Positions 1,143 to 62,861 of a DNA stretch of 62,861 bases are shown in pieces (position 1 is the stretch's first letter; the number at the start of each line of letters is the position of its first letter). The notes beneath the pieces were generated by a model that worked only from the letters and a program-made list of their open reading frames with translations, did not search any database and had not been told where the DNA came from. The stretch comes from a virus. The stretch spans positions 1-62,861 of IMG/VR virus record IMGVR_UViG_3300034069_000992; one strand, written 5' to 3'. A program made the position numbers and the translations under genes.

Positions 1143-1667
1143 TCAGCCTTCCATCTCGGACGCAAGCCGAGCAAGACGCTGCAAGCGCTCGACCTCCAGA
1201 GCCAGCTTGAACGCCTTTGGGTCTGCCGCCTCTGCAACCCACTTCACCAACTGGCGCTCATCGGTGACGCATCGGCGGGCAGCGTGAAGCAGCGGCAGAA
1301 CCGTCGTCGCTGGCAGATCGTCGAACTCGCGCATAACGGCCGCGATGTACTCCTGCTTTGAGTCCGGCGACATGCGTTGGCCGATCAGCGCTACGATCGA
1401 GGTGACGACGGCAAACAGTTCCTCTGTTGATGCCGGCTCGCTCTCGTGCAGAGCGCCATCGAGTGCGAGCCTGATGTCCGAAGCGTATTGCAGAAGATGC
1501 TGATCCTTCAGCCTCTCGTCATCCGCGCCGTTTTCGATCAGCGAGATATAGTGCGAGCGCGTCACGACCAGCCTGTTCCGCCGGGCCATACCGTCTTCCG
1601 GTGACAGGGTTGTGAGTTTCGCGGGTGTCGGGTCCATAAGTTTTTGCCTTTTCGAGAGTCCGCGCAA
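1143..1667 (-). CDS. Hypothetical protein (start uncertain; 1637 or 1589 possible)
   Basis: 174-aa ORF in the minus-strand operon; overlaps the end of the initiator gene if the longest start is used. Confidence 0.5.
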   Translation of the reverse strand: MRGLSKRQKLMDPTPAKLTTLSPEDGMARRNRLVVTRSHYISLIENGADDERLKDQHLLQYASDIRLALDGALHESEPASTEELFAVVTSIVALIGQRMSPDSKQEYIAAVMREFDDLPATTVLPLLHAARRCVTDERQLVKWVAEAADPKAFKLALEVERLQRLARLASEMEG

Positions 1668-2616: not shown

Positions 2617-2747
2617 TCATATTCGTCATCGTCGCGCATATCGTTCCCTCTCTGTTGCGGGAGCGACTCGCGTCGTCTATATCGACGGCGAGCGTGCCTG
2701 CTCCCATGTTGCGGCCGTCCGGTGTCAGAAGCCGGGCGGCCGTTCTG

Positions 2748-4217
2748 CTATACGAGCAGCGGATCATCGTTGCCAATAGACAGCACCTCGCGCTGTCGCA
2801 CCGAATAGAACTCCCCGTGGAATGATACCGTCGCCGTCATGGTACGGCCGTGGCGGTTCTTGGCGCCGATCAGATCGGCTTTCCCCCGCGCGGCCATCAT
2901 CTCGACCTCCCACGCCTCGTGAAGATCCTGTTTCTTTTCGTTGGTCTCCCCCTTCCTCGGCTCAGTCTGCTCTAGGTAATATTCCTCGCGGTAGATGAAC
3001 GTGACGGTGTCGGCGTCCTGCTCGAGATTGCCGGACTCCTTCAGATCCGAAAGCATCGGCCGCTTGTTCTGCCGGCCCTCAACGCCTCGCGACAACTGGT
3101 TGAGCGCAATCACGGCGATGTCGAGCGCGTGCGCCATCGCGTTGAGGAAGGCGGAGATGAAGTTCACCCGCTTACGATCGTCGTCGATCAGCTTGCCGTC
3201 GATATCAGCGGCGTAGAGCGCCACCGAGTCGACGACACAAAACGCGAGATCCTTCCCCTCTGCCTTGAGCAGCGCCTTCTTGCGCGCGCACTCACTCCAG
3301 ACGCGACGAATGTTGCCGCCGCGCAGATCTACGAAGTCGAGCGGGATGAGATCGCAGCGGTCGGCGATCTTCTCCAGCGCCATGCGCTCGCCCGGCGTCA
3401 CCTTGCCTCGCCGCAGATCGTCGTGCTTGATCCGATAGCCGAGCGCGAAACCGATATCGGTGGCAGCGCGCATGGCAAGCTGCTCCTCCGTCATCTCCGC
3501 CGACAGGTAGATGCCCGGATTGCCGTTGATCGCGTAGCCGTGCGCCGCCGACAGCGCGAGCGTCGTCTTGCCCATACCCGGTCGACCGGCAATCAGGTGG
3601 AAGCCGGGCTCGAGCGGACCCAGGATGACGTCGAGATCCGGAACCAGGTGGTTCGTCATCCCGATCGCTTCACCTTCGTCCTGGATGCGTCGGACGCGGT
3701 CGCCAGCAAGCCGCACCATGTTCCCGAGGGTTCGGACCGGCTTTGCCGTCGACCGCGTGCTGGCGGCCCAGCCAGCCGCCTCAACGCGCCCCGTGATCTC
3801 CATGATCGGCGTGTCGAAATTCGACGTCAGCATTTCGTCGGCCAACTGCACGGCGGCGCGCGCAACACGGCGATCGGAGAGCTCAATTATCTGCGCGGCG
3901 AAATCGGCGGCACCAACCACCGCCGCGGGCGAATCCACAAGCCGAGCGAGATAGTCGCCGTGCATTGCGGCTTCATCCTTGGCGAAGATCGGGCGCAGTG
4001 AGATCGCACTGGCTCGCGCTCCCTTGGCGCTGAAGCGCAGCAACGCGCTGTAGATCCGACCGTGCAAGGGTTCGGCGAAATCGTCGACCCGCAGGCGATC
4101 CGCCCAAGCGGTGATGATGGAATTGTCGATGAGCATGCCGCCGAGCAAGGCAGCTTCAGCATCGATGTTCGTCAGCAGATCAGGTGCGGTGGCTTCGTCC
4201 TGTTCGTAATAACTCAC
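2748..4217 (-). CDS. dnaB: Replicative DNA helicase DnaB
   Basis: 489 aa; DnaB N-domain followed by RecA-like domain with Walker A GRPGMGKTTLALS; GTG start overlaps the upstream stop (GTGA). Confidence 0.92.
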   Translation of the reverse strand: MSYYEQDEATAPDLLTNIDAEAALLGGMLIDNSIITAWADRLRVDDFAEPLHGRIYSALLRFSAKGARASAISLRPIFAKDEAAMHGDYLARLVDSPAAVVGAADFAAQIIELSDRRVARAAVQLADEMLTSNFDTPIMEITGRVEAAGWAASTRSTAKPVRTLGNMVRLAGDRVRRIQDEGEAIGMTNHLVPDLDVILGPLEPGFHLIAGRPGMGKTTLALSAAHGYAINGNPGIYLSAEMTEEQLAMRAATDIGFALGYRIKHDDLRRGKVTPGERMALEKIADRCDLIPLDFVDLRGGNIRRVWSECARKKALLKAEGKDLAFCVVDSVALYAADIDGKLIDDDRKRVNFISAFLNAMAHALDIAVIALNQLSRGVEGRQNKRPMLSDLKESGNLEQDADTVTFIYREEYYLEQTEPRKGETNEKKQDLHEAWEVEMMAARGKADLIGAKNRHGRTMTATVSFHGEFYSVRQREVLSIGNDDPLLV

Positions 4218-4837
4218 GCTGTGGCGCCTCCGTTGAACTTTGCCTGCTCATTGCCCCACGTCGACCATCCTGCACGCTCTTCGCGGCTGAAGATCTCGGC
4301 ATACGGACCTTCGCAATATCGCTGCACGCGCGCGAACGCCTCGTCAGGCTTGCGACTGTGCTCCCGCACCGGCGCCAGAATGATCTCGTGCACGTCCTTC
4401 GCCATCCGCCGCGCATTGCCACGGCGGCCGAGCAGGACATATTCCGCGTTCTTCCGCGTGGTGTGCCCCAGCCCCATGAACAGATCCGCTTGGATCAGCG
4501 GCAGCATCCGCATCGGTTGCGTCGCGAACGCGCGGCGCATCTTCACCCACACGAACCCCATGCCGGAATATTTGAAGCCCCACCGGTCCATCGTCTCCAG
4601 CGCTTGCGGGAGATGTGGGCCGGTCGACCACAGGAAGAGGTGGCAGTCGCGCGCGGCGATATCGAGCATCGGCATCGCGCAGATCTCTTCCCTCGTCATG
4701 GTCTGGTAATGCTTCGTCACCCCGCGATCGCTGGCAAAGTTCTGCGGGCGGGGCGGCGCGTAGCCTTTGAACGCCCATGGTGGATCGGCCATGATCGCCT
4801 TGAAGCCGCCGGGTGGCACGGACAGCGCATCGAACAT
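4214..4837 (-). CDS. MT-A70 family DNA N6-adenine methyltransferase
   Basis: IMADPPWAF catalytic DPPW motif; start ATG 4837 overlaps the GcrA-like stop (TGATG); longer start at 4879 possible. Confidence 0.85.
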   Translation of the reverse strand: MFDALSVPPGGFKAIMADPPWAFKGYAPPRPQNFASDRGVTKHYQTMTREEICAMPMLDIAARDCHLFLWSTGPHLPQALETMDRWGFKYSGMGFVWVKMRRAFATQPMRMLPLIQADLFMGLGHTTRKNAEYVLLGRRGNARRMAKDVHEIILAPVREHSRKPDEAFARVQRYCEGPYAEIFSREERAGWSTWGNEQAKFNGGATA

Positions 4838-5145
4838 CAAACGGCCTGCCAGCCAACGCGGGCAACTAAACCGTCCCACATCTTCATCGCCTGTATGTAG
4901 GCGAGCCCGACCTCTCGCGAAGCTTCGAGAATGTTGCGGTCCTGATCTGCTACCAAGTCGATCAGACGCTCGAATTTAGCCTCGTTTGTCTCCACCGGAT
5001 TAACGCGGCGATCAAGACTTAGCCTGTGCGCCTTGCCCATAACCATGTTGCGGGTGATGCCCATGATCTTGCCGATGTCGGAAGCTGTCATGCCCTTATC
5101 CCAGAGTTCGGTCAGCTTTGTGATCTTGTCGTCTGTCCAAACCAT
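4837..5145 (-). CDS. gcrA: GcrA-like cell-cycle regulator, N-terminal DNA-binding domain only
   Basis: MVWTDDKITKLTELWDKGMTASDIGKIMGITRNMVMGKAHRLSL matches the GcrA N-domain signature (WTD..LW..G.SAS.I...G.TRN.V.GK.HRL.L). This is the real gene inside the 364-aa track ORF 4837..5931. Confidence 0.8.
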   Translation of the reverse strand: MVWTDDKITKLTELWDKGMTASDIGKIMGITRNMVMGKAHRLSLDRRVNPVETNEAKFERLIDLVADQDRNILEASREVGLAYIQAMKMWDGLVARVGWQAV

Positions 5146-5723
5146 TATCGACTTCCTCCAAATAAGATCTGATCGCGCCACGGGCGGTGATAGTCGGGCA
5201 GAAGTGACAGCCCGAAATCGAGGATGCCCGCCGCCTCGGCCGCGTCGTGAATGTCTGTGTGCCAGCCGTATGACTCGCAGCGCTGCATCGCGAGTTCCTT
5301 TGGATCTTCGCCGGGCAGATACGGCTTGCCCTTCTTCGTCTTGTCTCGCTTGAAGCCGCTGCCGCGACCGATGAAGTGCTTGCGCCAGGTCGAGATGTCG
5401 ACGCAGTAGCAATGCGCCTTTACCTGGAACGCGAACTTCTCGACGATCGCACCAAGCCCGATCAGGCGGTATGCGTTCTGCGGGTTCATGTTCTCCGCGA
5501 TGTGCTGCGCCTCGAAGAAGAAGTGGCTGATCCCTCCCTGCGATCGCATCTCGAGGTATTTTTCCCGCAACCACATCTCGAGCGCGGCGCACGGCTCTCC
5601 GATCGCGTTCGCGGCGCCGGGCAGCGTGAAGGCGTCCAGGAACGGGCGCTGCATCCCTGGTCGGTGCAGCGCCCATCCTGTCGTCGTCGCGAGATCCAGT
5701 GCGAGGACGGCAGCTTGCTTCAT
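5145..5723 (-). CDS. RuvC-like Holliday junction resolvase
   Basis: VLALDLATTTGWA N-terminal catalytic Asp motif and C-terminal DIHDAAEAAGI, typical of the RuvC fold; stop overlaps the next start (TAATG). Confidence 0.7.
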   Translation of the reverse strand: MKQAAVLALDLATTTGWALHRPGMQRPFLDAFTLPGAANAIGEPCAALEMWLREKYLEMRSQGGISHFFFEAQHIAENMNPQNAYRLIGLGAIVEKFAFQVKAHCYCVDISTWRKHFIGRGSGFKRDKTKKGKPYLPGEDPKELAMQRCESYGWHTDIHDAAEAAGILDFGLSLLPDYHRPWRDQILFGGSR

Positions 5724-6319
5724 TCCGGATTGAGATCCGAATTGTCGCCCGTGTACGGCTCTTGCGTCGCCGCGTCGGGCTGTGCACCCTTCGCATGCGC
5801 TTCCTTGATCCGCTTACGCTTCTCCGCCGGCGACTCGGCCTTGGGCGCTGCCGCGTCGAACTCAGCATCGCGCCGCTTACGCTCTTCAGCGGGATCGACC
5901 TCCGGCTCATCCGACTTCGGGGTTTCGACATCCGCTACCAGCTTGTCGATTTCCTCATCGTTCTGCGGTTGCTCGCGACGGCCAAAATCGGGCTTGATGA
6001 TGTTGCCCGGCTCAGCGCCCTCCGCCCGATCGACGAGATCGCCGATGGACCACTCGGCCGCATCGATCAGACCCGTCAGTGAGCGCCAGATGTCCTGCTG
6101 CTCATCGCTCTCTAGGCCATCCAGTGCGAGGAAGATCCGCGCTGCCTTCTTGTTGACCTTGAAGCCAACGACGGTGTCGTAGATGCCGCCGATCTCGCCG
6201 TTGATGCCGGCGATGCGTTCCTTCTTCGGCTTGATTCCCCGAAGACGCTGGATTGCGCCCCGGTAGTTGGGCGGTTTCATGTCGTTTTGGACACGATCCG
6301 CAGTCGCACGATCTGCCAT
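5720..6319 (-). CDS. Hypothetical acidic protein
   Basis: Start ATG 6319 preceded by GGAGAA; stop overlaps the RuvC start (ATGA). The longer track ORF (to 6445) would overlap the Cro-like gene. Confidence 0.6.
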   Translation of the reverse strand: MADRATADRVQNDMKPPNYRGAIQRLRGIKPKKERIAGINGEIGGIYDTVVGFKVNKKAARIFLALDGLESDEQQDIWRSLTGLIDAAEWSIGDLVDRAEGAEPGNIIKPDFGRREQPQNDEEIDKLVADVETPKSDEPEVDPAEERKRRDAEFDAAAPKAESPAEKRKRIKEAHAKGAQPDAATQEPYTGDNSDLNPE

Positions 6320-22437: not shown

Positions 22438-22680
22438 ATGCGCCACTATTTCACCGATGCGATCGCCTACACCAAGCCGGAGCCGCATCATCGCCTTTGC
22501 CTTCAGTTTGACGCGGTGACACTTCAGCAACGCGGCAAAGACAATTTCGCTGTGCGCTACGGCAAGCAAGTTGATGCAGATGCTACATATGCGGAAGCGT
22601 GTGCACTGTTAGGCGCGGCCTTGATGCATCAAGCCGCATGTGGGGGCCTGTTAGACAATCGAGAGAAAGGCGAACGCTAA
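22438..22680 (+). CDS. Hypothetical protein
   Basis: 80-aa ORF 3 nt after the upstream stop; its TAA is followed immediately by hammerhead 1. Confidence 0.55.
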   Translation: MRHYFTDAIAYTKPEPHHRLCLQFDAVTLQQRGKDNFAVRYGKQVDADATYAEACALLGAALMHQAACGGLLDNREKGER

Positions 22681-22736
22681 GGCGAAACGGGGCGCACGCC
22701 CCGTCCGCTAGGCTGGCATCCTAGCGCTGATGAGCC
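22681..22736 (+). ncRNA. Type II hammerhead self-cleaving ribozyme (HHR-1)
   Basis: GGC-GAAA-[CGGGGC GCAC GCCCCG]-UC|-[CGCUAGG CUGGCAU CCUAGCG]-CUGAUGA-GCC. Full conserved core, GUC cleavage triplet; predicted cut between 22705 and 22706. Confidence 0.88.
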
Positions 22737-22759
22737 TGCCACGAATGAAAGAACACACG

Positions 22760-23617: not shown

Positions 23618-23817
23618 TGGCTAAGAAATCCGGCTTCAATCTGTCGTTCGACGTTCGCAATGCGGCTTTTGACGACGGCAACCGGCCATACGAAGCCGCG
23701 CGCATCCTTCGCGAAATCGCCGATAAATTAGAGGCTCAAGCCTATGTGGGTGGCGGCCACGTCCGCGATGTGAACGGCAACACGATAGGCCATTGGGAGA
23801 TGACACCAACCGCATAG
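23617..23817 (+). CDS. Hypothetical protein
   Basis: 66-aa ORF, TGATG coupling; its TAG overlaps the first base of HHR-2. Confidence 0.55.
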   Translation: MAKKSGFNLSFDVRNAAFDDGNRPYEAARILREIADKLEAQAYVGGGHVRDVNGNTIGHWEMTPTA

Positions 23818-23879
23818 GCGAAACGCTCCGCCACCGTGCGGGGCGTCCAACCGGATCGGGAACCGGTTGCTGATGAGCC
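23817..23879 (+). ncRNA. Type II hammerhead self-cleaving ribozyme (HHR-2)
   Basis: GGC-GAAA-[CGCUCCGC CACCGU GCGGGGCG]-UC|-[CAACCGG AUCGGGAA CCGGUUG]-CUGAUGA-GCC; predicted cut between 23847 and 23848. Confidence 0.88.
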
Positions 23880-23903
23880 AGCCCTAGAAACGAAGGATTG
23901 CAC

Positions 23904-24532: not shown

Positions 24533-24534
24533 TT

Positions 24535-24596
24535 GCCGAAACGCCGCGCCTTGCGCGTGGCGTCCACCGGAACCGTCCACCCGGTGCTGATGAGGC
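24535..24596 (+). ncRNA. Type II hammerhead self-cleaving ribozyme (HHR-3)
   Basis: GCC-GAAA-[CGCCGCGC CUUGC GCGUGGCG]-UC|-[CACCGG AACCGUCCAC CCGGUG]-CUGAUGA-GGC. Stem II is swapped (GCC/GGC) relative to HHR-1/2; predicted cut between 24564 and 24565. Confidence 0.88.
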
Positions 24597-24617
24597 AGGA
24601 CACGAAACGAAGGAACG

Positions 24618-41564: not shown

Positions 41565-44500
41565 CTACAACTGGTCGGCGTACATTGCCCTCTTAGACCC
41601 AGGCAGCAGCGAGAGCGAACTGCTAGTTCCGCTGCTCGATGCCGGCACCGTCGACCCCAGCGAGTTAATCGCCGCTGTCACCTGATCCAGCTTGCCCGAC
41701 AGCGTATCGGTCTGCGCCTTGGTCGCATCAGCAGACGCGTTTTGCAAAGACGAGATCGCCGCCTGCACCGTGCTGTCGTTGGCGAAGGGCGACGCCGGCA
41801 GCGTGCTGACGTCGGTGATGCCGGCGTTGTCGCGCGCCTTCTCCAGCAGCGAGCGCAGCATATCGAAGTCGTCGAAGAATGATGAGCTCGATCCGTTGAG
41901 CGCACGGCTCGCGTCCTGGAAGTTGCGCGCCGCCTCGAGCAACTTGTCCTGGTCGACCACCTTGCCGTTCGCGATGTCCGATTTGAACGAAGCGAGATCC
42001 GACGCCGCATTGTCGTACGTCGACTTCTTGTTGAGCGGAGACGAAGAGCCGCCGACCATATCCTTGATGAACTGGTCGATCTGATCGGCCGCTTGCGTGG
42101 TGGCTTGTTTGATCGCGTCCGCGCGCTCCAGATCGTACAGCTTTTGCGCATCGGCAAACTGCTCCGCCGTCGCGCCGCCTTCCTTCAAGTACGAGATCAT
42201 CTTCGAGAACTCGTCGTTGAGGTTCGACACGGCGTACTTCACCGGATCGGTAAGCTGGAGAAGCCGCTTCGGGATCGACTCGATCACGATCGCCTTGTTG
42301 ATCGCCTGCTCAAGATCCTGCCCCGACGCGATGATCTTCTTCGACGCGGCGCTGATACCGGAGATCACCGCGTTCTGGATCGAGTAACGCACGGCGTATG
42401 CGATGGCGTCAGCCTCACCATCCTTGCCGAAGTCCTGAAGCTGCGACGAATTGAAGTTGTTGTAGTTGAGCGACTTGCTTGTGCTTGTCGTGGCGACGCG
42501 CGCCTTTCCATCGAACGTGCCGATCGTGACGCCCGGAAGGTTGGAGATCGTGGCGCCAAGCTGCGATGCGATCTGGTTGATGCCGTCCGCCACCGACTTT
42601 GCGCTGCCGGTCGCGGCCGTTGCTGCCGCGCTACTGTTGCCCGTGCCCGTGCCGCCAACCGCCTGCCCGTACTGATCGAGCGAGACGCTGGCGCTGCCAT
42701 ACTTGGGCTTGCTGAACAGGGCTCCAATCGTGCCGCCCAGCAATCCTCCAATCAGGCCCAGCCCGGGGATGCCAGTTGCCTGGCCGAGAAGACCACCAGC
42801 CGCGCCACCGATCTGCGCACCCGTCTGCGATTGCTTGATACCGAGTGCTTGCGCGAAGCCAGAGGCGATCGCACCCTTGCCCGCGCCGTCGAGCGCCGTG
42901 CCGAAGCTGTCGCCGATCTTCTTGAAAAAGGTGGATCCGCCCAGGATCGTTCCGTCTTCCGACCGCGTCGTCTTCTTGCCCGTGATCTTATTCACGAAGC
43001 CGTCGAGCACACTCGCCACCGGCTTGAACAGGCTGCTGCCGATCGTGTTGTAGACCTGCTTGGCGGACGGCGTGACAGACGTTGGCAGCGGTACCGCCGG
43101 CTGCGGCTTGCGCCCCTGCACCACGACATCGCCAGCGTCGTCGGTAGACGTGCCGCCGAGCCCCAGCGCCTTGTTGACCAAGCCGCTGATCGTGTCGGTG
43201 GAGATCTTGCCCGGCCCGACGCCCAGAGCATCCGCGAGCGCCGAAGAGCCGATGCTGCCACCCGACAGGGATCCGCCGGTGCCGAGCGCGCCGGTGATGC
43301 GCGCCGCGCCGTTCTCCACCGCCGTAGCGAACTTATCTACCGCCGTTTCCGAGCGGCTGGCTGTGGAGGTGAGGTTGTCGACGGACGTGCCAAAGTTGCC
43401 GATCGCGGTGTCGACCGCCGACCGCCCCTCGAGCAGCGCGCGCAACTTCTCATCGCTGCCGGCGAAGATCTTTTCGACTAGCTGCTTCGACTGGATCTGC
43501 GCGAACTGGTTTCGGAAGCTGGCGAACGCACTCTTGAAAATGTTGCCGACATTGCCGCCGGTCTGGAGCCCGGTGAAGATCGACTCCGCCGTGCTGCGCG
43601 CATCGTCCAGTGCGCCGGTGATCGACGAGACAACCCGCTGCCGCGACGCCAGCGCATCATTGATGCGAAGCTGCTGCTGCTCATTGCGGATCAAGCCCTG
43701 ATATTCGCTCGCACTGAGCGTGATGCCCTGATCGAATAGCTGATTGCGCTTCTGAAGGGCGGCCGCCTCGCTGTCGCGGCCCTGGAGTGCCAGGCGCGCA
43801 TAGTCTTCGTTGCGCTGGTAGTCGCGCTCCAGATCCCGAAGCGGCTTGCGCACCCCTTCGTTGATGCGCTTGGCGTCCGCATCCGCGATCTCGGCGGTAT
43901 AGATGCCCGTGCCGAGCGGGTTGATCTTCTTGATCGCCTCGATTTCGTCTTTCGTCTTGCCGATGAAGGCCACGCCATCCACCGCCGTATCCACGAAGCG
44001 CGAGAGATCGTCGATCTTGTCGTTGGCCGAGTCGAGTGCGCGCGGCGCATCATCATAGGCGGCAAGGATATCGCGCCGCTTCTCGCCAGCCGATGCGGCG
44101 GCGGCCGCAACTCGCTTGGCATCTGCGATCATCTGAGACGCCGCGCTCGACGATGCGGCCTTGCTCTCGTCGAGCCGGTTCACTTCGTCGTCGTAAGTCT
44201 TCAGGATCTTGATGCGCTGATCGAGGAATTCCTGGCTGTTGGGATTGAGCCCTTGCTTGCTTAGCGCGAGCAAATCCTTGTCGCGCTTGGCCGCCGCTTC
44301 ATCCTTGGCATCCTGGATCGCGTCGCGGACTTCCTTCCGCTCCTGCGCCCGCCCTGCCGACGCGGCCTTCCGCGCATCCGCCTGCGCCTGCTGTGCAGCG
44401 GTGACGGCCTCTAGCGCCGCCTGCAACTTGTTCTGATAGGTGATGTCATCGTCACCAGCCGGACGATTAAGCTGCAACTGCTTCAGAGCAGCCTTCGCCT

Positions 44501-46973
44501 TTTCGAGATCGGTCTGCGCCGCCGCGCTCTTAGCATTGGCGAGGATCTGGCTCTGCTTCAGCGGCTTGGCCGTCGCTGTGATGCCTCCGCTGACGCCGCC
44601 GGTATAGCCCTGTGCCGCGCGCTGGCGGTTCTCCGGCGTATCCTCTCCCGCCAGCAGGCCGATGCCGCCACGGATCTTCTGGTTGGTGCGCGCCAGATCG
44701 ACAATGCCGCCACCGGCGGACGATAGCCGCGCCGCAATGCCGGCGAGGCGATCATCGCTCTGCGCCAGCTTGTTCACCGTGTCGACGACGGTGCCGATGC
44801 TGAGCGTCTGGTCGGCTTTCTGCCCGGTTGCCGGGTTGCCGGTGTAGCGCTGGATGAGCGCGAACGCCTGCTGCTGTTGCGGCGACAGCTTGGTGATGCC
44901 GAACGCGTCCGGCCGCGTGCCCTTGACGATGTCGTTGCCGATCGCCCGAACGCTCGAGCGCGCGTTGAGGTAGGCGGTGTTGGACGATGCGAGCGCCTCA
45001 CGCTGCCCGATGCTGATCCCTGCCAGCTTGGCCTTGTTCTGCTCGATGATCCTGCCGGTGGTGAAGTCCACCGCGCCGGCGAGATCCTGTTGCGCCTTGG
45101 CGAACAGACGCGCGCTCTGCTCGGCCTGGCTCTCCGCCGTGACGAACAGGTAGATCGCCGTGGCCGCCGCCGCGAACGCGATCGCCCATGGTCCGCCCAG
45201 CAACGAAACCACACTGCCCAGAGCGCTGCGCAACAGACCGGTGCGACCGGCTACGCTCGTTTGCGCAACGACTAATTCTTCCGTCGCGGTAGATGCTGCC
45301 TTGGTAGTGGCCGCAATTTCGATATTGGTCGCCGATAGCTTTTGATTAGCAGCAGCCATGGCATTTTTCGCCACCGCCGCCTCTTCCGCAGCCGCAGCCT
45401 CAAGCTGATAGATCTTCGCCGCTTCAGCCTCGAGTGCAAGCTGCGCCTCAGACGTCGTCATGCGAACGCCCGTCGTGGGATTGGAAGCGAATCCGGAATA
45501 ACGCGACTGTACTACAGTCTCGGCCGTCGCCGCTGCGATAGCCCGCTGCTCTGTGATCGCAGCTTCCGCCGCTGCCGCCCGCACCTCCGCCTGCCGGGTC
45601 AACTCGACGATGTTGAGGCGGATCGCCTCACGCTCCGCCAGCAGGCCAGACAGATGTCCGGTATAGGCGTTGGCAGTGATTTCCGCATCGCGCACCCATG
45701 CGGCGTCCATCGCGATCACGGCGTCACGCGTGGCGAGGATGCCGCCGACTGACGCCGCCGCCTGGCTTATGAGCCCCCCCAGCTTCACCGCGGCGAACGC
45801 GGTGCCGATGCCGGCGGCGAGCGACGCGATCACGCGCAGATGCCCGGCCACCACGATCAGGCCATCGGCAAGGGTGCGGGTCAGCCCCACGCTCTGATCG
45901 AAGCGGCCGGTGAGCGTGACGATCGAGTTGCCGAAGGCGACGCCGGCGGTGCTGAGCGTCTGAGGCAGCGACTCGAATTGCTTGTTGATCTTGATTGAGG
46001 CGCGGTCGAGCGCGTCGGCGACGTCGAGACTGGTTAGCGCGCCCTGCTGTCCCAGCTTGCGCAGGTTGGAGATCGACGTGCCGATCGAGCCGTCGACATT
46101 CTTGTAGCCGTCGGCGATCGCCTTCAGCAGCAGCGGGGCGCCTTCCTGGAGCGACTGGAATTCCTGCCCGGAGCCGCGGAAGTTCGCGCCGATCGCCTGG
46201 CTGAACTGCACCAGCGCGCCCTCGCGCGCCTGTGTCGAGCCGCCGGACAGCGTTGCCGCCTTCGACGCGATTTCGGTCAACCGGCCAATGCGGTTCTGGC
46301 TGATGCCAAGCTGATCGGTGTTGCTCTTCAGGCGCGCATAGATCTCGACGATAGGCTCGAGCGCGGTGCGCGACCGCGTGGCGATGCCGATGATGTCTTC
46401 CATCGCCTTGTTGGCGTCGGTCTGACTGTCGAAGAACGGCCGGATGCGAGACGAAAGGTTCGCATATTCATTCCCGGCGCGGCCGAGCGCGAAGATCGTG
46501 GCGCCGAACGCGGCGAGACCGACCTGAAGGCCGGTGAGTTCGGTGACGGCGCGCGACAGCGTGGAGATGCGGCTGGAGACCGGATCAAGGCGGCCCGACA
46601 CCACGTTGAGCGCGGTGGCCGTGGTGGCGAGTGACCCTGCGAACCCACGATGTGCGCGCGCCGATGCGGTGACGGCGTTCGCCTCGCGCGTCGTAGCCGA
46701 TGCCAGCCGCGTTGCCGCGCGCTCACCTTCCGCCGCTGCCGAGATGGTCGACCGGATCGCCGACGCTCGCTGCTGATAGGCTTGCGTCCCTGTACTGGCG
46801 CCGGATGCACTCTTACCCGACAGGAGCCCCGCCGTGGCGCGCGCCGCTTCATTCGCCGCCTGAGTGATCGTCGCATAGCTGGAGGTGGCGATCGACGTCT
46901 GCCGGGCGAACGCCGCCTCCAGGCCGGGATCGATCTGAGCGTTAATATAGGTGGTGAATGTTGCGGCGCGCAT
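41565..46973 (-). CDS. Tape measure protein
   Basis: 1802 aa, Ala/Gly/Ser-rich with coiled-coil and hydrophobic Gly-rich stretches; GGAGA SD; position between the chaperone genes and the fibre genes. Confidence 0.85.
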   Translation of the reverse strand: MRAATFTTYINAQIDPGLEAAFARQTSIATSSYATITQAANEAARATAGLLSGKSASGASTGTQAYQQRASAIRSTISAAAEGERAATRLASATTREANAVTASARAHRGFAGSLATTATALNVVSGRLDPVSSRISTLSRAVTELTGLQVGLAAFGATIFALGRAGNEYANLSSRIRPFFDSQTDANKAMEDIIGIATRSRTALEPIVEIYARLKSNTDQLGISQNRIGRLTEIASKAATLSGGSTQAREGALVQFSQAIGANFRGSGQEFQSLQEGAPLLLKAIADGYKNVDGSIGTSISNLRKLGQQGALTSLDVADALDRASIKINKQFESLPQTLSTAGVAFGNSIVTLTGRFDQSVGLTRTLADGLIVVAGHLRVIASLAAGIGTAFAAVKLGGLISQAAASVGGILATRDAVIAMDAAWVRDAEITANAYTGHLSGLLAEREAIRLNIVELTRQAEVRAAAAEAAITEQRAIAAATAETVVQSRYSGFASNPTTGVRMTTSEAQLALEAEAAKIYQLEAAAAEEAAVAKNAMAAANQKLSATNIEIAATTKAASTATEELVVAQTSVAGRTGLLRSALGSVVSLLGGPWAIAFAAAATAIYLFVTAESQAEQSARLFAKAQQDLAGAVDFTTGRIIEQNKAKLAGISIGQREALASSNTAYLNARSSVRAIGNDIVKGTRPDAFGITKLSPQQQQAFALIQRYTGNPATGQKADQTLSIGTVVDTVNKLAQSDDRLAGIAARLSSAGGGIVDLARTNQKIRGGIGLLAGEDTPENRQRAAQGYTGGVSGGITATAKPLKQSQILANAKSAAAQTDLEKAKAALKQLQLNRPAGDDDITYQNKLQAALEAVTAAQQAQADARKAASAGRAQERKEVRDAIQDAKDEAAAKRDKDLLALSKQGLNPNSQEFLDQRIKILKTYDDEVNRLDESKAASSSAASQMIADAKRVAAAAASAGEKRRDILAAYDDAPRALDSANDKIDDLSRFVDTAVDGVAFIGKTKDEIEAIKKINPLGTGIYTAEIADADAKRINEGVRKPLRDLERDYQRNEDYARLALQGRDSEAAALQKRNQLFDQGITLSASEYQGLIRNEQQQLRINDALASRQRVVSSITGALDDARSTAESIFTGLQTGGNVGNIFKSAFASFRNQFAQIQSKQLVEKIFAGSDEKLRALLEGRSAVDTAIGNFGTSVDNLTSTASRSETAVDKFATAVENGAARITGALGTGGSLSGGSIGSSALADALGVGPGKISTDTISGLVNKALGLGGTSTDDAGDVVVQGRKPQPAVPLPTSVTPSAKQVYNTIGSSLFKPVASVLDGFVNKITGKKTTRSEDGTILGGSTFFKKIGDSFGTALDGAGKGAIASGFAQALGIKQSQTGAQIGGAAGGLLGQATGIPGLGLIGGLLGGTIGALFSKPKYGSASVSLDQYGQAVGGTGTGNSSAAATAATGSAKSVADGINQIASQLGATISNLPGVTIGTFDGKARVATTSTSKSLNYNNFNSSQLQDFGKDGEADAIAYAVRYSIQNAVISGISAASKKIIASGQDLEQAINKAIVIESIPKRLLQLTDPVKYAVSNLNDEFSKMISYLKEGGATAEQFADAQKLYDLERADAIKQATTQAADQIDQFIKDMVGGSSSPLNKKSTYDNAASDLASFKSDIANGKVVDQDKLLEAARNFQDASRALNGSSSSFFDDFDMLRSLLEKARDNAGITDVSTLPASPFANDSTVQAAISSLQNASADATKAQTDTLSGKLDQVTAAINSLGSTVPASSSGTSSSLSLLPGSKRAMYADQL

Positions 46974-46997
46974 TGGACGTTCTCCAGACCACCGCTG

Positions 46998-47031
46998 GAT
47001 ACGCGAACGGCCTCGCTGTTGCCAGCGAAGC
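46998..47031 (-). terminator. Hairpin + GTTCGCGTAT element (copy 3)
   Basis: Stem 47008-47017 / 47022-47031 (9 of 10 bp), followed on the minus strand by GTTCGCGTAT (46998-47007). Confidence 0.45.
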
Positions 47032-47206
47032 CGTCCGGCCCGTTCTATTCTCGAGCGTCTCCTAGTCCGCGCTAGGTCGCCTACTGCCGGCAGTCCCCGC
47101 TCAACCTATCGCGGTATCGCGGATCATCCCACCGGGTTCGCAAGGGATCTCGGTAGCTGATCGCGGCCCATTGGCGCGGGAAGTTCCGCGATCAGCGTGC
47201 GCCTCA

Positions 47207-47241
47207 CATACGCAAGCGGGCCATCTCGATCAAGACGGCCC
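47207..47241 (-). terminator. Hairpin + CTTGCGTAT element (copy 2)
   Basis: Stem CGGGCC 47216-47221 / GGCCCG 47236-47241, followed on the minus strand by CTTGCGTAT (47207-47215). Confidence 0.45.
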
Positions 47242-47398
47242 GTGCGGTTCTGTGGAGGTTGGCTGTAGCTGTCTGCCTCCGGTTGTTCGGGAATTCATTT
47301 CGCCTTGATTGACGCCCGCCAGTGACCGCTACCCGGTGTTTCCTTGTCCCGTGAGGGAGGACATATCCCTGCGCGAATTCTCGCCACCGCAACCGCCT

Positions 47399-47438
47399 GA
47401 TACGCAAACGGCCCGCCTGGATCAATACCAGACGGGCC
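47399..47438 (-). terminator. Hairpin + TTTGCGTAT element (copy 1), terminator-like, downstream of the lipoprotein gene
   Basis: Stem CGGCCCG 47408-47414 / CGGGCCG 47432-47438, followed on the minus strand by TTTGCGTAT (47399-47407). Confidence 0.55.
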
Positions 47439-47513
47439 GCTTCGCGAGGTTGGCTTCGCAGACAATCGCATCACCCCCTTTGCAGATCGAGGGGAAATTA
47501 TGCCGATCCTATG

Positions 47514-47699
47514 TCAGTCCGTGTTGCCGTACGGCTTGCACACGATGTTGTCCGGCCCCGGGTTGCCCGGCGTCTTCACCGCCTGCGTACCGGAAGGGCA
47601 CCACGGGCCACTGGTGTTGCCGGCGGGCGGCGTCGGATCGTTCGTGCTGCACGCGGCGAGCGGCAACGCGGCGATGGCGAGTAGAGCAATCATGCGCAT
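47514..47699 (-). CDS. Small lipoprotein (moron-like)
   Basis: MRMIALLAIAALPLAA-C lipobox; AGGAGAA SD; own downstream terminator-like hairpin. Confidence 0.65.
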   Translation of the reverse strand: MRMIALLAIAALPLAACSTNDPTPPAGNTSGPWCPSGTQAVKTPGNPGPDNIVCKPYGNTD

Positions 47700-47738: not shown

Positions 47739-48461
47739 TTACGCACCACGCGAGCGTTGGATCTGCGCAATCTCTTCCGCGATGTACGTCGGCACGCGGC
47801 GGGCATACGGCGCGATCGTCGCATCCTTGTTAAACCGCTGCGCCCGGCGGGTGACGCGCACGCCGACGAAGGCGATGACTTCCTTTGCTGGCACCCGGCT
47901 GCGCGTCTTGCGCGTGCCCGCCGCCTTGGCCTGCCCCGACTTGGGCGACAGCGTCACCTTCTGGACAACCCAGATCGCCTTGCTGTCGCTGAGCGGACGG
48001 AAGATCAATCGGCCGATCGACTGCATCAGGCCGCTGCGCATGTAGAGTTCGGGCGTGATGCGCTGACGTCGGCCGCCGATCGATATCAGCCGTGGGATCG
48101 CTTTGGTTGGGAAGGCGAGCCACTGTCCGCCGGCCGATGGTCGGATCGTGGAGCCCCGGCTGTACGATTCGAGCGCGCCGCCAGCGAGGCTCTTATCGCC
48201 ACCCTTGGCATACAGCACACCGTACGGATCGCTGCGGCTGTTGGCCTTGCCAGCCTGGCGCTTGCTGGAAGTGTATCCGACCGCGTTGCCAAGGCGCCCC
48301 AGTCCCGCGCCGGAGATCCGCTCGCGCGTGCCGATCTGCGCCTCTCTGGTCGCGCGGTCGGTAGCTACGATTGCGGCGGCGCGCAGATCCTTTCGGTACT
48401 GCGCCGCCGCCGCGGAACTGGCCCTTGCTGGATTACCCAGAGGCGTGGCCGTAAATTTCAC
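47739..48461 (-). CDS. Hypothetical basic structural-module protein
   Basis: 240 aa; GTG start overlaps (GTGA) the stop of the -1 frame chaperone extension. Confidence 0.55.
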   Translation of the reverse strand: MKFTATPLGNPARASSAAAAQYRKDLRAAAIVATDRATREAQIGTRERISGAGLGRLGNAVGYTSSKRQAGKANSRSDPYGVLYAKGGDKSLAGGALESYSRGSTIRPSAGGQWLAFPTKAIPRLISIGGRRQRITPELYMRSGLMQSIGRLIFRPLSDSKAIWVVQKVTLSPKSGQAKAAGTRKTRSRVPAKEVIAFVGVRVTRRAQRFNKDATIAPYARRVPTYIAEEIAQIQRSRGA

Positions 48462-54014: not shown

Positions 54015-55244
54015 TCAATGCGCCATCGCCGGTGCGTTCGTCGTCATCTGGATGTAAGGCGACGTCGATTTAGGAAGCGCCCGGAACATATAGTTGCCCC
54101 AGCGCGAGCCGCCGCCCCACAGCGTCACACCGTACAGGTTGGGGGAGTCCTTGATCTCCTGCATGATCGACGGCGCCAAGGCAGCGCATGTATCCTTGAT
54201 CTGCGCATCGCTGCCGAACGCATACTCGCCATAGATGATCGGCATCTTGAACGGCACTGCCGCGCGCGCCGCCGACGCGAGGATCACGTACTTGTCGCAG
54301 TTCATGCTCGAGCCAGAGCCATTGGTGTCGAAATAGCGGTGAATGTCGAGCCCGGTCAGATGCAGCGGATCGCTGATCGTACCACCGGGAAGCTTTACCA
54401 TCGCGCATGCAACCGACGCGCAAGCCTTCGGAGCCCTATCACCCTTATCGAAACGCTGCGCTCCGCTCGAGCCGGGATAGTCCAGCCACATAAAGCGGGT
54501 GACACCAGCCGCACGCACACCAGTCACGATCGATTGCGCATCGGTCGCCCACTGATCCCAATTCTTGATGTTTGGTTCGTTCTGCAACCCGTAGTGGATC
54601 AGCGTCGACTTCGGCAGGACGCTATCGGCCTTGATGACTTGTGCGATCTGGATAGCCGGTGCGGGCCATGCATACGAGTGGTTCTCGAAGATGCACGGGG
54701 TTGCCAGCTTGATGCACTCGTTTGCCAGAGCAATCAGCTTCGGCGCGGAATTGTCGAACTGCACGAACTTGAGCGGGATACGGAACATCCGATAGCCCAC
54801 CGCATAGTAGCTATCCATCTCCGCCGGTGTCGGGATGAATTGCCCGTTGTCCATGTTGGCGAACTCGCCGCCCGATAGGTTGATGCCGTACAGCGGTCCG
54901 ACTGGCGCTACAGGCGTGACTACAACCGGGGCAGGCGCAGGCCCGTCGACAACCTTGTACGTGTACCCGCCATCGACGTAGCCGCCGCCAAGCGGGCCAA
55001 GCGGCAGGATCTTGGTGACGCCAGGCATCGTGAAGAAGCCGTTGGCAACCATCCGGTCGATCCATCCTTTCGGCGATCGCTGTGTGAAGGTGCCGTCGCT
55101 ATGGATCGTCTCCACCAACGGCTTGCTGGTTTGAATGATGTCACCCTGCCGGACATTGAGTGTTCCCGGGTGAATCTGCACCGTGTCGGCTAATGCCGGG
55201 CCGGCGATCACCGCCAGCGCAAACGCAATTAAGAACCGAAACAT
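54015..55244 (-). CDS. Secreted glycoside hydrolase family 5 (cellulase-like glycanase)
   Basis: Signal peptide MFRFLIAFALAVIAGPALA-D. GINLSGGEF, acid/base IHYGLQNEPN, nucleophile IIYGEYAF; GGAGG SD. Confidence 0.75.
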   Translation of the reverse strand: MFRFLIAFALAVIAGPALADTVQIHPGTLNVRQGDIIQTSKPLVETIHSDGTFTQRSPKGWIDRMVANGFFTMPGVTKILPLGPLGGGYVDGGYTYKVVDGPAPAPVVVTPVAPVGPLYGINLSGGEFANMDNGQFIPTPAEMDSYYAVGYRMFRIPLKFVQFDNSAPKLIALANECIKLATPCIFENHSYAWPAPAIQIAQVIKADSVLPKSTLIHYGLQNEPNIKNWDQWATDAQSIVTGVRAAGVTRFMWLDYPGSSGAQRFDKGDRAPKACASVACAMVKLPGGTISDPLHLTGLDIHRYFDTNGSGSSMNCDKYVILASAARAAVPFKMPIIYGEYAFGSDAQIKDTCAALAPSIMQEIKDSPNLYGVTLWGGGSRWGNYMFRALPKSTSPYIQMTTNAPAMAH

Positions 55245-60817: not shown

Positions 60818-61092
60818 GGGAATCCGATCTCTACTGCGATTGCGCTGCCGCCCGTTCCATCACCGATCGGAAGGCCGCGGCGGCGGGCCTCCGCCATCAT
60901 CTCACGCAACTCGACGTCGATCGCCTGGCGCTGATCTTTTGTTGAGCCGAACTCGATCAGCCGCCCCTCACCCTGCACCTTGCGGATCATCGCAGTCTCG
61001 CCCGCGAGCGTTTGCTTGCGTGCGGTGACGTACGATCGGATCTCTTCGATGAGCGCTTGGTCGCTATAAAAGTTTGGCCCGTAGAGGTTCAT
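60814..61092 (-). CDS. Head-tail joining protein gpW-like
   Basis: 92 aa, between TerL and the portal gene exactly as lambda W; overlaps on both sides. Confidence 0.6.
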   Translation of the reverse strand: MNLYGPNFYSDQALIEEIRSYVTARKQTLAGETAMIRKVQGEGRLIEFGSTKDQRQAIDVELREMMAEARRRGLPIGDGTGGSAIAVEIGFP

Positions 61093-62861
61093 CGCTCAAG
61101 TTCCCCGTCGATGCCCTCGTTTAGTCGGGCAAGTCGCTCGAAGGGGTTTACAGGGTCGGCGGGGGCGCTGTCGATGCCTTGCCCGCGTGGCCTTGGATCT
61201 GCCCACTCCGGATATTCTCCATCATCCCATAACCCGGGGCGATCCGGCTTGAGCGTCTCGCGCGCGACCTCGCACATCACCCACGCGTCCCACGTCTCGT
61301 TATCCTTGTAGAGTTTCACCCACGCACCGTTGCGGAATCGCTCGGCCGTCAACTCGCGCAGGAAGCGCGGCGTCATCGGCTGGCCTTCGTAGGTCTGGTT
61401 TGGATAGTGCATCCGCCCCGGGCCGGGCTCATCGATGCGCATGCGCCGCGAGATGATCCGCTTCAGTTCGTGCACGTTCGGATAGCGCTCGTAGACTTTG
61501 GTGGTGCGCTGCTTACCGGCATCGTCGATTTCGACCGCGACCGGCTTGCCGTACAGCGGAGCCGTCTTCTTCGATGCGCCGTGAACCAGCGCGATGCGGT
61601 AGGCGTCGATGATCCGCTTCTTACCACCCGGCCGCCGCGATAGAAGGTTCGACAGCCATGAGCGCGCGTTCGCCGTCACGCCAGGCACACCCACCGCGTC
61701 GATCATCGTGCGCGCGATCGGCAGGAAGAGCGGCGCCTCCCCGCGCGCCAGGCGCAGATCGTTGTCAGCGAGCGGATAGGTTCGTGTCAGCACCGCCTCT
61801 TCGATGATGTCCCAATCGGATAGCTTTCCGCCCGGATCGATGTTGTCGAACGCGCCGTGCTCGCCGAAGCGCGGCCATTGTTTGATCGCGAAGGCATCGA
61901 TCAGCCACGATTGCTTGCCGAGATCCCAGCCGATTACGCGGACCTCGTAACGGTCGCCCTGCACGTCGACGAAGGCGGTGAGGAAACGGACGCCGGCGGG
62001 AACCGTCTTCAGGCGATAACGCGAGGTGAGGCGGCCCGAGACCACCTTCCAACTCTCGACAACCTCGTCTTCCTTTGCGCCCAGGTACGTCTCGCCCAGC
62101 TTCTTGACGATCACCTCTTTGAGTTTGACGTCGTTGCCGGTGGCCTCGAATTCCAGCATCGCCGCCGCCCAATCGCGCGCGGTCTCGCCCAGCTTCACGA
62201 ACGGCGCCATGAACGCGTGGATCACGAAGCCCATCGTGATCGATATGCGCGCCTCGCCTTCTACGGTCCCATCGGGCAGCAGGCGTTGATGCGGCTGGAG
62301 CCACATGCCGGTCTGCATAAGCGGCTTGCGCTCTTCGGCGTCGAACAGAGCATTGCAGCCGTCGTGCGGACAGCACAGGCGAACATCGCGCTGCACCGAC
62401 TCGAGGAACTCGGCCCGCTCCATGTCGCCGGCGCGCGACAGCAACTCCGAGACGTTCCACGTCATCCGCGCGCCGGTGTCTTCAGCCTCCTGCGCCGGAG
62501 ACATGGCGTTGCCGCAATGCGGGCATCGCACCCACCACAGATGCAGCAGCGAATCGCGCAGATGCAGATCGATCCCACCGTCCGGTCCCGCGTCGGCGTG
62601 GCTGGCGAGAAACGCCTTCGCCGCCGAACCGAACTCTTCCTGGCGGGAGGTGATGAGCGTGGGGGCGGCGTCGCGCGTCTTCGGTGTCCACGCATCGATC
62701 TCGTCGCCGACGATCAGCGGCGCGGCCTTCATGCGAAGCGCTCGAGCGGTAGCTGGGCGGTAGAACAGTTTGGAGCGCCCGATGTTCTTGCGCTTACGGC
62801 CGGTGGTCCGGTCGCCCCAATTGACCTTCTCGTTGATCTCCGGATGTATCCGAAGCATCTC
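61089..62861 (-). CDS. terL: Terminase large subunit (lambda GpA-like), C-terminal 590 codons; full protein about 724 aa after joining 1..543
   Basis: 589-aa ORF; GpA-like length and position (TerS-TerL-gpW-portal synteny); frame continues upstream through the repeat into 1..543. Confidence 0.85.
   Translation of the reverse strand, partial: EMLRIHPEINEKVNWGDRTTGRKRKNIGRSKLFYRPATARALRMKAAPLIVGDEIDAWTPKTRDAAPTLITSRQEEFGSAAKAFLASHADAGPDGGIDLHLRDSLLHLWWVRCPHCGNAMSPAQEAEDTGARMTWNVSELLSRAGDMERAEFLESVQRDVRLCCPHDGCNALFDAEERKPLMQTGMWLQPHQRLLPDGTVEGEARISITMGFVIHAFMAPFVKLGETARDWAAAMLEFEATGNDVKLKEVIVKKLGETYLGAKEDEVVESWKVVSGRLTSRYRLKTVPAGVRFLTAFVDVQGDRYEVRVIGWDLGKQSWLIDAFAIKQWPRFGEHGAFDNIDPGGKLSDWDIIEEAVLTRTYPLADNDLRLARGEAPLFLPIARTMIDAVGVPGVTANARSWLSNLLSRRPGGKKRIIDAYRIALVHGASKKTAPLYGKPVAVEIDDAGKQRTTKVYERYPNVHELKRIISRRMRIDEPGPGRMHYPNQTYEGQPMTPRFLRELTAERFRNGAWVKLYKDNETWDAWVMCEVARETLKPDRPGLWDDGEYPEWADPRPRGQGIDSAPADPVNPFERLARLNEGIDGELER
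62721..62861. repeat. Terminal direct repeat, right copy
   Basis: Identical to 1-141; lies inside the TerL reading frame on the minus strand. Confidence 0.95.

Follow-up and report, generated by a model that had tools for sequence, protein, structure and literature searches.

The subject of this report is a 540-nucleotide (nt) gap at positions 46974-47513 of the viral DNA IMGVR_UViG_3300034069_000992 (IMG/VR; the whole 62,861-nt stretch is referred to as the window), together with the three hairpins, H1, H2 and H3, that it contains. The gap lies in the late operon, for which the minus strand is the transcribed strand. Read on this strand, a conserved gene for a 240-amino acid (aa) protein is followed by a gene for a 61-aa lipoprotein, by 540 nt without a credible open reading frame (ORF) and by the tape-measure gene (Table 1); the distance from the 240-aa gene to the tape-measure gene is 766 nt. 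The lipoprotein showed a weak match to the lipoprotein family phrog_22340. The tape-measure gene is preceded by the Shine-Dalgarno (SD) sequence GGAGA at 46985-46981, and its product has the N-terminus MRAATFTTYINAQ, as in related phages.

The gap is non-coding. The G+C content at third codon positions (GC3) was 0.56-0.66 in all three of its frames, versus 0.76-0.89 for the real genes of the phage. For comparison, about 35 distinct related loci were fetched, with an alignment-based scan of IMG/VR among the sources; they are labelled L001, L003 and so on. Translated comparison (tblastx) of the gap with about 50 related loci gave no coding-level match, only noise except at the H3 region and in L005. 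These results bear out the initial annotation, which had found no credible ORF in the gap and had regarded the reading frame at 47204-47425 as non-coding; the GC3 of that frame is 0.68 and it is not conserved. Both this ORF and the one at 47295-47474 were rejected as genes on GC3 and the absence of conservation, and the putative ATG of the 59-aa ORF reads AGG in L087. When the cassette proteins of relatives were compared with the gap by tblastn, no match was obtained, which argues against recognizable pseudogenes. An Rfam search of the gap gave nothing at gathering score and, with E-values up to 10, three matches only, each far below that score. ARAGORN found no tRNA in the window, and the tRNA model RF00005 found none in the gap at E-values up to 10. 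The gap as a whole folds with a z-score of -4.3.

The three GC-rich minus-strand hairpins described in the initial annotation were all found, each with the tail YTYGCGTAT directly on its 3' side. The arms of H1 are AAGCGGCCCGUCUGG and CCAGGCGGGCCGUUU, with the loop uauugau and the tail (UUU)GCGUAUC (listed also as UUUGCGUAUC); those of H2, which shares repeat D1 with H1, are CGGGCCGUCUU and GAGAUGGCCCG, with the loop gauc and the tail CUUGCGUAUG; and those of H3 are CGGACGGCUUCGCUG and CAGCGAGGCCGUUCG, with the loop gcaa and the tail (UUCG)CGUAUCC. H3 forms the 3' boundary of the whole insert, and the ATG of the tape-measure gene follows 23 nt further on. The other structures that had been noted were likewise located: an 11-base pair (bp) perfect inverted repeat (47156-47166 / 47186-47196), a TATCGCGG direct repeat (47107-47122), the CCTAG...CTAGG element (47076-47061) and a related hairpin followed by CUUUGCGUGU that ends the late operon (31125-31090). 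The hexamer GCGTAT by itself is not over-represented in the window (27 found, 27.6 expected); what stands out is that three long hairpins in a 540-nt stretch are each immediately followed by it. About 33 long hairpins were counted on the minus strand, and the occurrence of the hexamer directly behind three of them, all in the gap, is far beyond chance. A covariance model built from the relatives' copies of the hairpin and tail (R1) scored 66 bits at H3, 38 bits at H1 (E-value 6e-9) and 11 bits at H2, and found no other site in the window with at least 15 bits. H1 is homologous to positions 1111-1193 of L087, and its sequence resembles a hairpin of L032 (4421-4461).

Table 1. Positions of the genes, hairpins and other elements discussed, in window coordinates unless a related locus is named.
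Feature	Position	Strand	Remarks
Conserved 240-aa late gene, function unassigned	47739..48461	-	Upstream anchor of the insertion hot spot; 118 homologues
Cassette 1: 61-aa lipoprotein gene, moron-like	47514..47699	-	Signal peptide with lipobox LAAC; GC3 0.89
Tape-measure gene	41565..46973	-	Downstream anchor of the hot spot; PF20155 TMP_3, 3e-40; PHROG tape-measure families
H1 hairpin	47442-47406 (with tail 47397..47442)	-	15 bp, loop UAUUGAU, -35 kcal/mol, z -6.0; 3' end of cassette 1
H2 hairpin	47242-47217 (with tail 47205..47242)	-	11 bp, loop GAUC, -25.6 kcal/mol, z -4.7; 3' end of unit 2
H3 hairpin	47037-47004 (with tail 46996..47037)	-	15 bp, GCAA tetraloop, -32 kcal/mol, z -5.2
Unit 2 body	47243..47396	-	About 155 nt, non-coding, no codon periodicity
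Unit 3: candidate structured small RNA of about 200 nt, ending in H3	46996..47200	-	Fold z -3.1
11-bp perfect stem (GCUGAUCGCGG / CCGCGAUCAGC)	47156..47196	-	Near the 5' end of unit 3; sequence not conserved in L005, L157
hpA, CCUAG-cgcgga-CUAGG	47061..47076	-	5 pairs, 100% paired
hpB, GCUCG-AGAAUAGAA-CGGGC	47038..47056	-	Conserved loop box (R)UAGAAC; flanks the H3-type hairpin
U-tract hairpins of the late operon	55873-55845, 55289-55262, 53497-53473, 52300-52271	-	Clean U-tracts
U-poor hairpin of the late operon	49753-49720	-	
Type II hammerhead ribozyme (RF02276) matches	22680-22744, 23816-23887, 24534-24604	+	42.7, 49 and 37.3 bits
Promoter-like TTGCAT sites in relatives	L003 4719-4760; L156 1593-1625; L157 7963-7997; L011 about 4330-4365; L005 5450-5480; L032 4137-4170		

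Comparison with related phages identified the stretch from the 240-aa gene to the tape-measure gene as a hot spot at which accessory DNA is inserted. Metagenomic homologues of the 240-aa protein number 118, and many of them are on contigs of about 62 kb. An exact-sequence look-up of this protein returned no record, and among 50,697 records of cultured phages neither the gap (blastn) nor the 240-aa protein (tblastn) had a match, while the tape-measure protein gave distant matches only. In at least 16 related loci the gap is missing and the tape-measure gene begins 10-85 nt after the 240-aa gene. About 18 other loci hold 0.2-2 kb of variable accessory DNA between these two anchors. Its contents include tRNA genes (Cys in L001 and L155, Met in L013 and L033, and one in L011), lipoprotein genes (L003 and L032, with an H1-like hairpin after the gene in L032), small ORFs (L003, L005, L010, L156 and L089) and orphan ORFs of 56-300 aa, one of which encodes a helix-turn-helix (HTH) protein in L032; some inserts include stretches without any ORF. 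The short ancestral intergenic region carries a GCCAYCGAYCGCG box before the SD of the tape-measure gene, and the inserts enter upstream of this box.

Several inserts of the relatives contain RNA-like elements of their own. An 89-nt 'tRNA-Lys(UUU)' with its anticodon at position 39 (43.7 bits) was called at 4433-4521 of L011, and tRNA-like pieces with a weak match to YrlA, a Y RNA-like family (27 bits, below gathering score), at 4884-4953 of L008. A GC-rich element of about 115 nt (GGGGCGGCGCCCGGAGGGTCGGCAGCATGGCCGGTGCAGGGCGGCGCAG...CCCGCCCGCCCCA) is conserved in L155 (2962-3080), L156 (2078-2190) and L087 (983-1095). Its ends are complementary in the manner of an acceptor stem, it adjoins tRNA-Cys on the upstream side in L155 and L156, and it had no Rfam match at E-values up to 0.5; it may be an undescribed tRNA-linked RNA. 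In the tRNA-Cys carriers L001 (5120-5192) and L155 (3157-3227) the box GATAGAACGG is joined almost directly to GCCATCGACCGCG, which looks as if an H3-type hairpin had been precisely deleted. If so, the tRNA cassette of these two phages would have no terminator before the tape-measure gene.

The hairpin and its tail form a conserved module that accompanies the inserts. The units of the relatives' inserts usually close with a GC-rich hairpin followed by UUCGCGUAUC. An H3-like element is present at the 3' end of the insert wherever an insert exists, except in L001, L155 and L033, and in a divergent form in L013; the module is absent from loci without an insert. Copies of the H3 type stand immediately before the tape-measure gene in L002, L003, L005, L008, L010, L011, L086, L087 and L157. 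L003 has three copies, which bracket each of its two inserted genes, and L087, L089, L060 and L064 have two each. In L011 and L064 the hairpin starts 0-3 nt past the 3' end of a tRNA. Furthermore, R1 detected divergent copies with the tail UUCGUGUAUCUGG in L032, L086, L088 and L089.

When conservation and covariation were analyzed, the stem proved to vary in sequence while its pairing is kept. In an alignment of 23 H3-type copies without gaps, the 15-bp helix was paired in 91% of cells overall and in 100% of those of the 11-bp core, with compensatory changes at seven of the 15 pairs, a value reached by none of 500 shuffles. Sliding the partner columns against each other made the pairing collapse. 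A U·G pair is kept in 22 of the 23 copies and further G·U pairs are present; on the other strand each would be an A·C mismatch, indicating that selection acts on the hairpin in the sense RNA. While the stem covaries, there is almost no variation in the apex CUGGNAACGG or in the tail UUCGCGUAU(C).

The module is not confined to the phages related to the one studied here. The H3-type pattern CTGGNAACNGNNNNNNCNTTCGCGTAT matched 18 IMG/VR contigs, 13 of them with a sequence that forms the hairpin, and these belong to two unrelated phage groups. Many are in the second group, where the module lies between a gene of about 730 aa, which we take to be the portal gene, and a MuF-type head gene; here too variable DNA comes before it, in some cases with tRNA-Met. 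Three additional copies, whose loops differ, were recovered with a 17-mer taken from the 3' arm and the tail. In a bacterial and archaeal set of one genome per species (185,579 species, 596 Gb) the pattern was matched 15 times, against about 17 expected by chance, and none of the matches formed the hairpin. The H3-type module is therefore phage-borne and not a host repeat, and for this pattern an origin as a host repeat of the repetitive extragenic palindrome (REP) or miniature inverted-repeat transposable element (MITE) kind was ruled out.

For unit 2 no homologue was found, nor a tRNA or Rfam match, nor any similarity to the cassette ORFs of relatives, and folded together with H2 it has no excess structure (z -0.8). 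Unit 3 is 79% identical to L005 over 146 nt, and aligns with L005 and L157 and in part with L089; scans for more homologues returned L157 only. Among the window, L005 and L157 three pairs of hpA are changed on both sides (CCUAG/CUAGG, CGCCG/CGGCG, CCCGG/CCGGG). Taken together, the three helices hpA, hpB and H3 at the 3' end of unit 3 are 100% paired in these three sequences, with six compensatory pairs, which none of 500 shuffles reproduced. The (R)UAGAAC box of hpB is also found in L002, L003, L089, L001 and L155. About 215 nt upstream of their H3 copy, L005 and L157 have a promoter-like TTGCAT-N17-CATATC/CATTTA. Unit 3 is thus a candidate phage small RNA (sRNA). The initial annotation had suggested a structured non-coding RNA in the gap; for 47200-46996, which behaves like a conserved structured non-coding RNA, the suggestion fits.

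The reading we favor, with a probability of roughly 0.6, is that the insert consists of three tandem units in the hot spot, namely the moron-like lipoprotein gene, an orphan non-coding unit of about 155 nt and a candidate sRNA of about 200 nt, and that each is closed by a conserved, phage-borne module of a hairpin and UUYGCGUAU(C), most likely a terminator. H1 would end the lipoprotein unit, H2 the orphan unit and H3 the third unit. The hairpins would act as intrinsic, probably leaky terminators and as 3'-end protectors for transcripts begun inside the cassettes, while the polymerase of the late operon would pass these modules, and at least five other hairpins, by read-through or processive antitermination. 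In a second layer of the proposal, each module might also start transcription afresh, either of the following unit or of the tape-measure gene. That the hairpins terminate transcription, that promoters are active and that an sRNA is expressed is inferred. That three hairpins occur in a row, which the initial annotation found odd, would follow from the stacking of three units and would call for no special control switch.

That the three hairpins are most likely intrinsic terminators is suggested by the strong GC stem, often with a GNRA loop, by the 5' GAAC flank that pairs with the 3' GUUC, by the selection at the RNA level, by the placement after genes and tRNAs, and by the similar tail of the hairpin that closes the late operon. 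The earlier suggestion of terminators is to this extent supported, for elements that look like terminators, are specific to one strand and act at the RNA level. Five further strong intergenic hairpins of 10-15 bp were found on the minus strand of the late operon, most of them right before the SD of the next gene. With at least five more internal hairpins, late transcription would have to pass terminator-like structures routinely, by read-through or antitermination. Regulated read-through is possible; in that case the late operon in its entirety would be subject to it.

Several observations weigh against this reading. The tail of the module is U-poor, in contrast to the clean U-tracts on other hairpins of the same operon: the tails UUUGCGUAU, CUUGCGUAU and UUCGCGUAU have 4-5 U in 9 nt and are interrupted by GCG, where an intrinsic terminator is expected to have a U-rich tract of about 7-9 nt, and a terminator scan called none of the three. 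A plain terminator would not need an apex and tail as specific as these invariant ones. In the window, neither a gene resembling Q, GafZ or N nor a loading site was identified. Moreover, unit 2 may be an inert remnant, since it has neither a homologue nor excess structure, and the candidacy of unit 3 depends on three or four sequences.

A separate observation in the late operon is a gene whose 409-aa product has a domain of glycosyl hydrolase family 5 (cellulase), at 54015-55244 on the minus strand, between two terminator-like hairpins. This protein may be a moron product or a virion-associated polysaccharide depolymerase.

Morons, a concept that reportedly goes back to Hendrix and colleagues in about 2000, are autonomous promoter-gene-terminator units inserted between the late genes of lambdoid phages. 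Lambdoid late operons tolerate them through polymerase passage through terminators. The insert studied here resembles morons in that extra DNA separates late genes that are adjacent in relatives, in its terminator-like unit ends, in its accessory content, with a lipoprotein gene here and in relatives, and in its tandem stacking. It differs in that two of its three units have no ORF, in that the units of relatives are often tRNA genes, in that one hairpin-plus-tail module of conserved sequence is shared, even with an unrelated phage group, and in that the unit promoters are putative. The phage tRNA clusters offer a similar parallel: the hot spot of relatives carries tRNA-Met, tRNA-Cys and others, bounded by the module, whereas the window has no tRNA or recognizable tRNA remnant. 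Compared with intrinsic terminators, the module has the expected GC-rich stem of 11-15 bp, often a GNRA tetraloop and a 5' A-rich flank that pairs with the 3' U's; it stands right after genes and tRNAs, has strand-specific G·U pairs, and a similar element ends the late operon. Its U-poor, invariant tail and its invariant apex go beyond what termination requires. In the gene transfer agent cluster of Caulobacter, internal terminators are read through by means of GafZ (PMC11150451). The long head-tail operon, the alphaproteobacterial setting and the internal terminators to be bypassed are features in common with antitermination by GafZ and by lambda Q; the difference is the lack of an identified regulator of this kind in the window, and a link is suggested by the number of internal hairpins. 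A lambda-type nut site was rejected: there is no boxA-like element, the linear element that is conserved follows the hairpin on its 3' side, and the site is inside the late operon.

A tail that is U-poor and yet invariant, together with an invariant apex, implies that more than termination is asked of the module, and promoter activity is a possible second function. The three copies can be spelled as promoters, H1 as ATTGAT-N16-CGTATCA, H2 as CTTGAT-N16-CGTATGT and H3 as CTGGCA-N16-CGTATCC, and many H3-type copies read CTGGAA-N16-CGTATCT across the loop, the 3' arm and the tail. The consensus of Sinorhizobium RpoH1/RpoH2 promoters, in the form in which PMC4843759 cites it from Barnett 2012, is CTTGAA/CTTGCC-N15-16-CCTATAT/CCTATCT. 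Measured against that quoted consensus, the module has the right spacing, five of six -35 positions in copies with a GAAA loop (CTGGAA) and six of seven -10 positions when the tail is CGTATCT, and the ATG of relatives lies at the expected start site; on the other hand, its -35 and spacer are inside a covarying hairpin, the second base of its -10 is G and not C, and copies of the H1 and H2 types vary in their -35.

At least four unrelated gene families of the relatives have, 8-9 nt past the TAT of the module, an ATG that no SD precedes. These are the MuF-type gene (L053, L057, L060, L062, L064, L065 and L068, where the spacing is constant even though the N-termini differ by up to 16 residues), a 56-aa membrane protein (L014), a 75-81-aa family (L054, L089 and L158) and the HTH protein (L032). 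A -10 element followed by a leaderless start has this spacing. The tail of H2 also aligns with the -10 of a promoter-like TTGCAT-N17-CATATC without a hairpin at the homologous place in L005. Weighing against a promoter layer, no ATG lies 8-9 nt past the TAT of H1, H2 or H3 in the window; the -35-like hexamer varies, being absent in L032 and poor in L160; under a sigma-70 reading the -10-like element has no T at -7; and a distance of only 14 nt separates the H1-like loop TTGATC of L011 from the TAT. We rate a restart promoter embedded in the module at about even odds.

A different promoter-like element recurs in the relatives. It reads TTGCATAAWYC-N~10-TGCATATC, with the -35 TTGCAT, a 17-nt spacer and the -10 CATATC, CATAAA or CATTTA, and in several relatives (for example L003, L156 and L157) it faces into the cassettes from a position overlapping the stop codon of the 240-aa gene. 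No clear counterpart was found in the window, including the region upstream of the lipoprotein gene, and a sigma-70 hexamer scan of the whole window was uninformative. For the motif of the hairpin module, comparison by eye with consensus sequences led to the rejection of sigma-54, extracytoplasmic function (ECF) sigma, DnaA-box, CtrA, GANTC/GcrA, IHF and boxA/boxB sites, in which the spacing or key bases do not fit; for an ECF-sigma promoter (AAC-N16-CGT), the distance from AAC to CGT is 14 nt and not 16.

Whether the module is chiefly a promoter, sigma-32- or sigma-70-like and giving leaderless mRNAs in relatives, with the hairpin in a secondary role such as insulator or access regulator, depends on how the resemblance of CTGGAA-N16-CGTATCT and of H2 to the quoted RpoH1/RpoH2 consensus, the leaderless ATG in at least four gene families and the alignment of the H2 tail with a promoter-like site are balanced against the stem. 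Covariation and strand-specific G·U pairs denote selection for a hairpin in RNA, of which a promoter in DNA has no need; the non-H3 copies do not conserve the -35-like hexamer, and the other late genes of the window have no copy in front. We regard a primarily promoter function as unlikely. Slightly less probable still is a regulator in cis dedicated to the tape-measure gene, in which three tandem attenuators or terminators throttle or time transcription into the tail genes through regulated read-through. The strength and strand specificity of the hairpins, their position immediately upstream of that gene and the H3-type copy directly before it in at least nine relatives fit such a device, which the initial annotation had also entertained. 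However, at least 16 relatives have no gap or hairpin before the tape-measure gene, another phage group has the module in front of unrelated genes (MuF, small ORFs), and the copies in L003, L064 and L089 bracket single cassette genes or tRNAs with no build-up before the tape-measure gene. The hairpins travel with cassettes of tRNAs, lipoprotein genes and small ORFs, and the idea of a dedicated device is not supported.

A near-identical 36-nt core precedes unrelated genes, the tape-measure gene in L005 and a MuF-type head gene in L062, and the module is always at the borders of cassettes whose content is highly variable. The spread of the module could accordingly be explained by a boundary or recombination site of a mobile cassette system, integron attC-like or REP/MITE-like, with a recombinase that reads the apex and tail. 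This explanation has little probability in our estimate: none of the loci had a recombinase or integrase called near the hot spot, a search for paired 5' and 3' sites with inverse cores found none, bacterial genomes contain no match to the H3-type pattern that forms the hairpin, the G·U pairs and GNRA loop indicate recognition of RNA rather than DNA, and ordinary homologous recombination at a shared functional motif gives the same pattern. An integron attC-type site was rejected specifically, with no recombinase near the loci and a tail, GTTCGCG, that misfits GTTRRRY. Least probable of all is that the insert is mostly inert, decayed tRNA or ORF cassettes having left their terminators behind, so that neither non-coding unit functions. 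Unit 2, without homologue, coding signal or excess structure, would suit this explanation, as would the intact tRNAs or ORFs of relatives at the same place; against it, the tRNA model and the tblastn searches with cassette proteins found nothing in the gap, and three other phages share unit 3, which shows compensatory changes. The packaging site, replication site or protein-binding array proposed in the initial annotation is not supported either, for the stem covaries instead of being kept in sequence, its G·U pairs are specific to one strand, and the genes for terminase and replication are elsewhere. A cos/pac site or replication origin is likewise not indicated by the positions of the gpA-type terminase gene (61089-62858) and of the genes for DnaB and a replication protein (1519-4217).

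If the reading of three stacked units holds, the apparent oddity of three terminators before an essential tail gene becomes ordinary biology, the stacking of accessory cassettes at a recombination hot spot. What is new is a hairpin module, conserved in sequence and covarying in structure, that is common to at least two unrelated phage groups and whose H3-type form was not found in bacterial genomes. It departs from known kinds in that the units are largely non-coding or tRNA, one module marks their borders, and the module may also drive leaderless genes. A more far-reaching version, which is possible and still rather doubtful, is that the module is a portable stop-and-restart insulator, a terminator with an embedded sigma-32-like or otherwise specialized promoter and a leaderless start on the A of ATG. 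Alphaproteobacterial phages would use it to plug tRNA, sRNA and accessory cassettes into essential late operons without polar effects and to swap them between unrelated lineages, and 47200-46996 would be a new sRNA family expressed from such a module. If the module served as terminator and promoter alike, it would reveal how add-on genes are kept insulated within the late operons of phages and how leaderless late genes such as MuF are expressed after insertion, and it would provide a compact natural part for synthetic biology in alphaproteobacteria. In practical terms, the hot spot is a place to seek phage tRNAs and unannotated small RNAs in metagenomic phage genomes.

The remaining genes of the window give some indication of the phage and its host. 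The head genes of the late operon are of the lambda type (gpA terminase, lambda-family portal, S49 protease and E-type major capsid protein), and products of the early region include DnaB, a DnaG-type primase, RecT, an SNF2 helicase, an MT-A70 methyltransferase and a GcrA-like protein. A Pfam scan of 30 larger proteins detected neither a phage RNA polymerase nor a sigma factor. The host is probably alphaproteobacterial, and probably a sphingomonad, as suggested by GcrA and by distant homologues of the 240-aa protein in Altererythrobacter and Novosphingobium. The gene for the MT-A70 adenine methyltransferase overlaps the end of the gene for the 364-aa protein with the C-terminal GcrA domain (4214-4879 and 4837-5931, minus strand), and this pairing of a phage methylase with a GcrA-like regulator hints at an alphaproteobacterial host. 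Additionally, the type II hammerhead ribozyme was matched three times above gathering score on the plus strand, each time in the same orientation, within 2 kb of the plus-strand gene block. The first and third matches lie just upstream of the ORF starts at 22730 and 24618, an arrangement that suggests self-cleavage of a polycistronic phage transcript.

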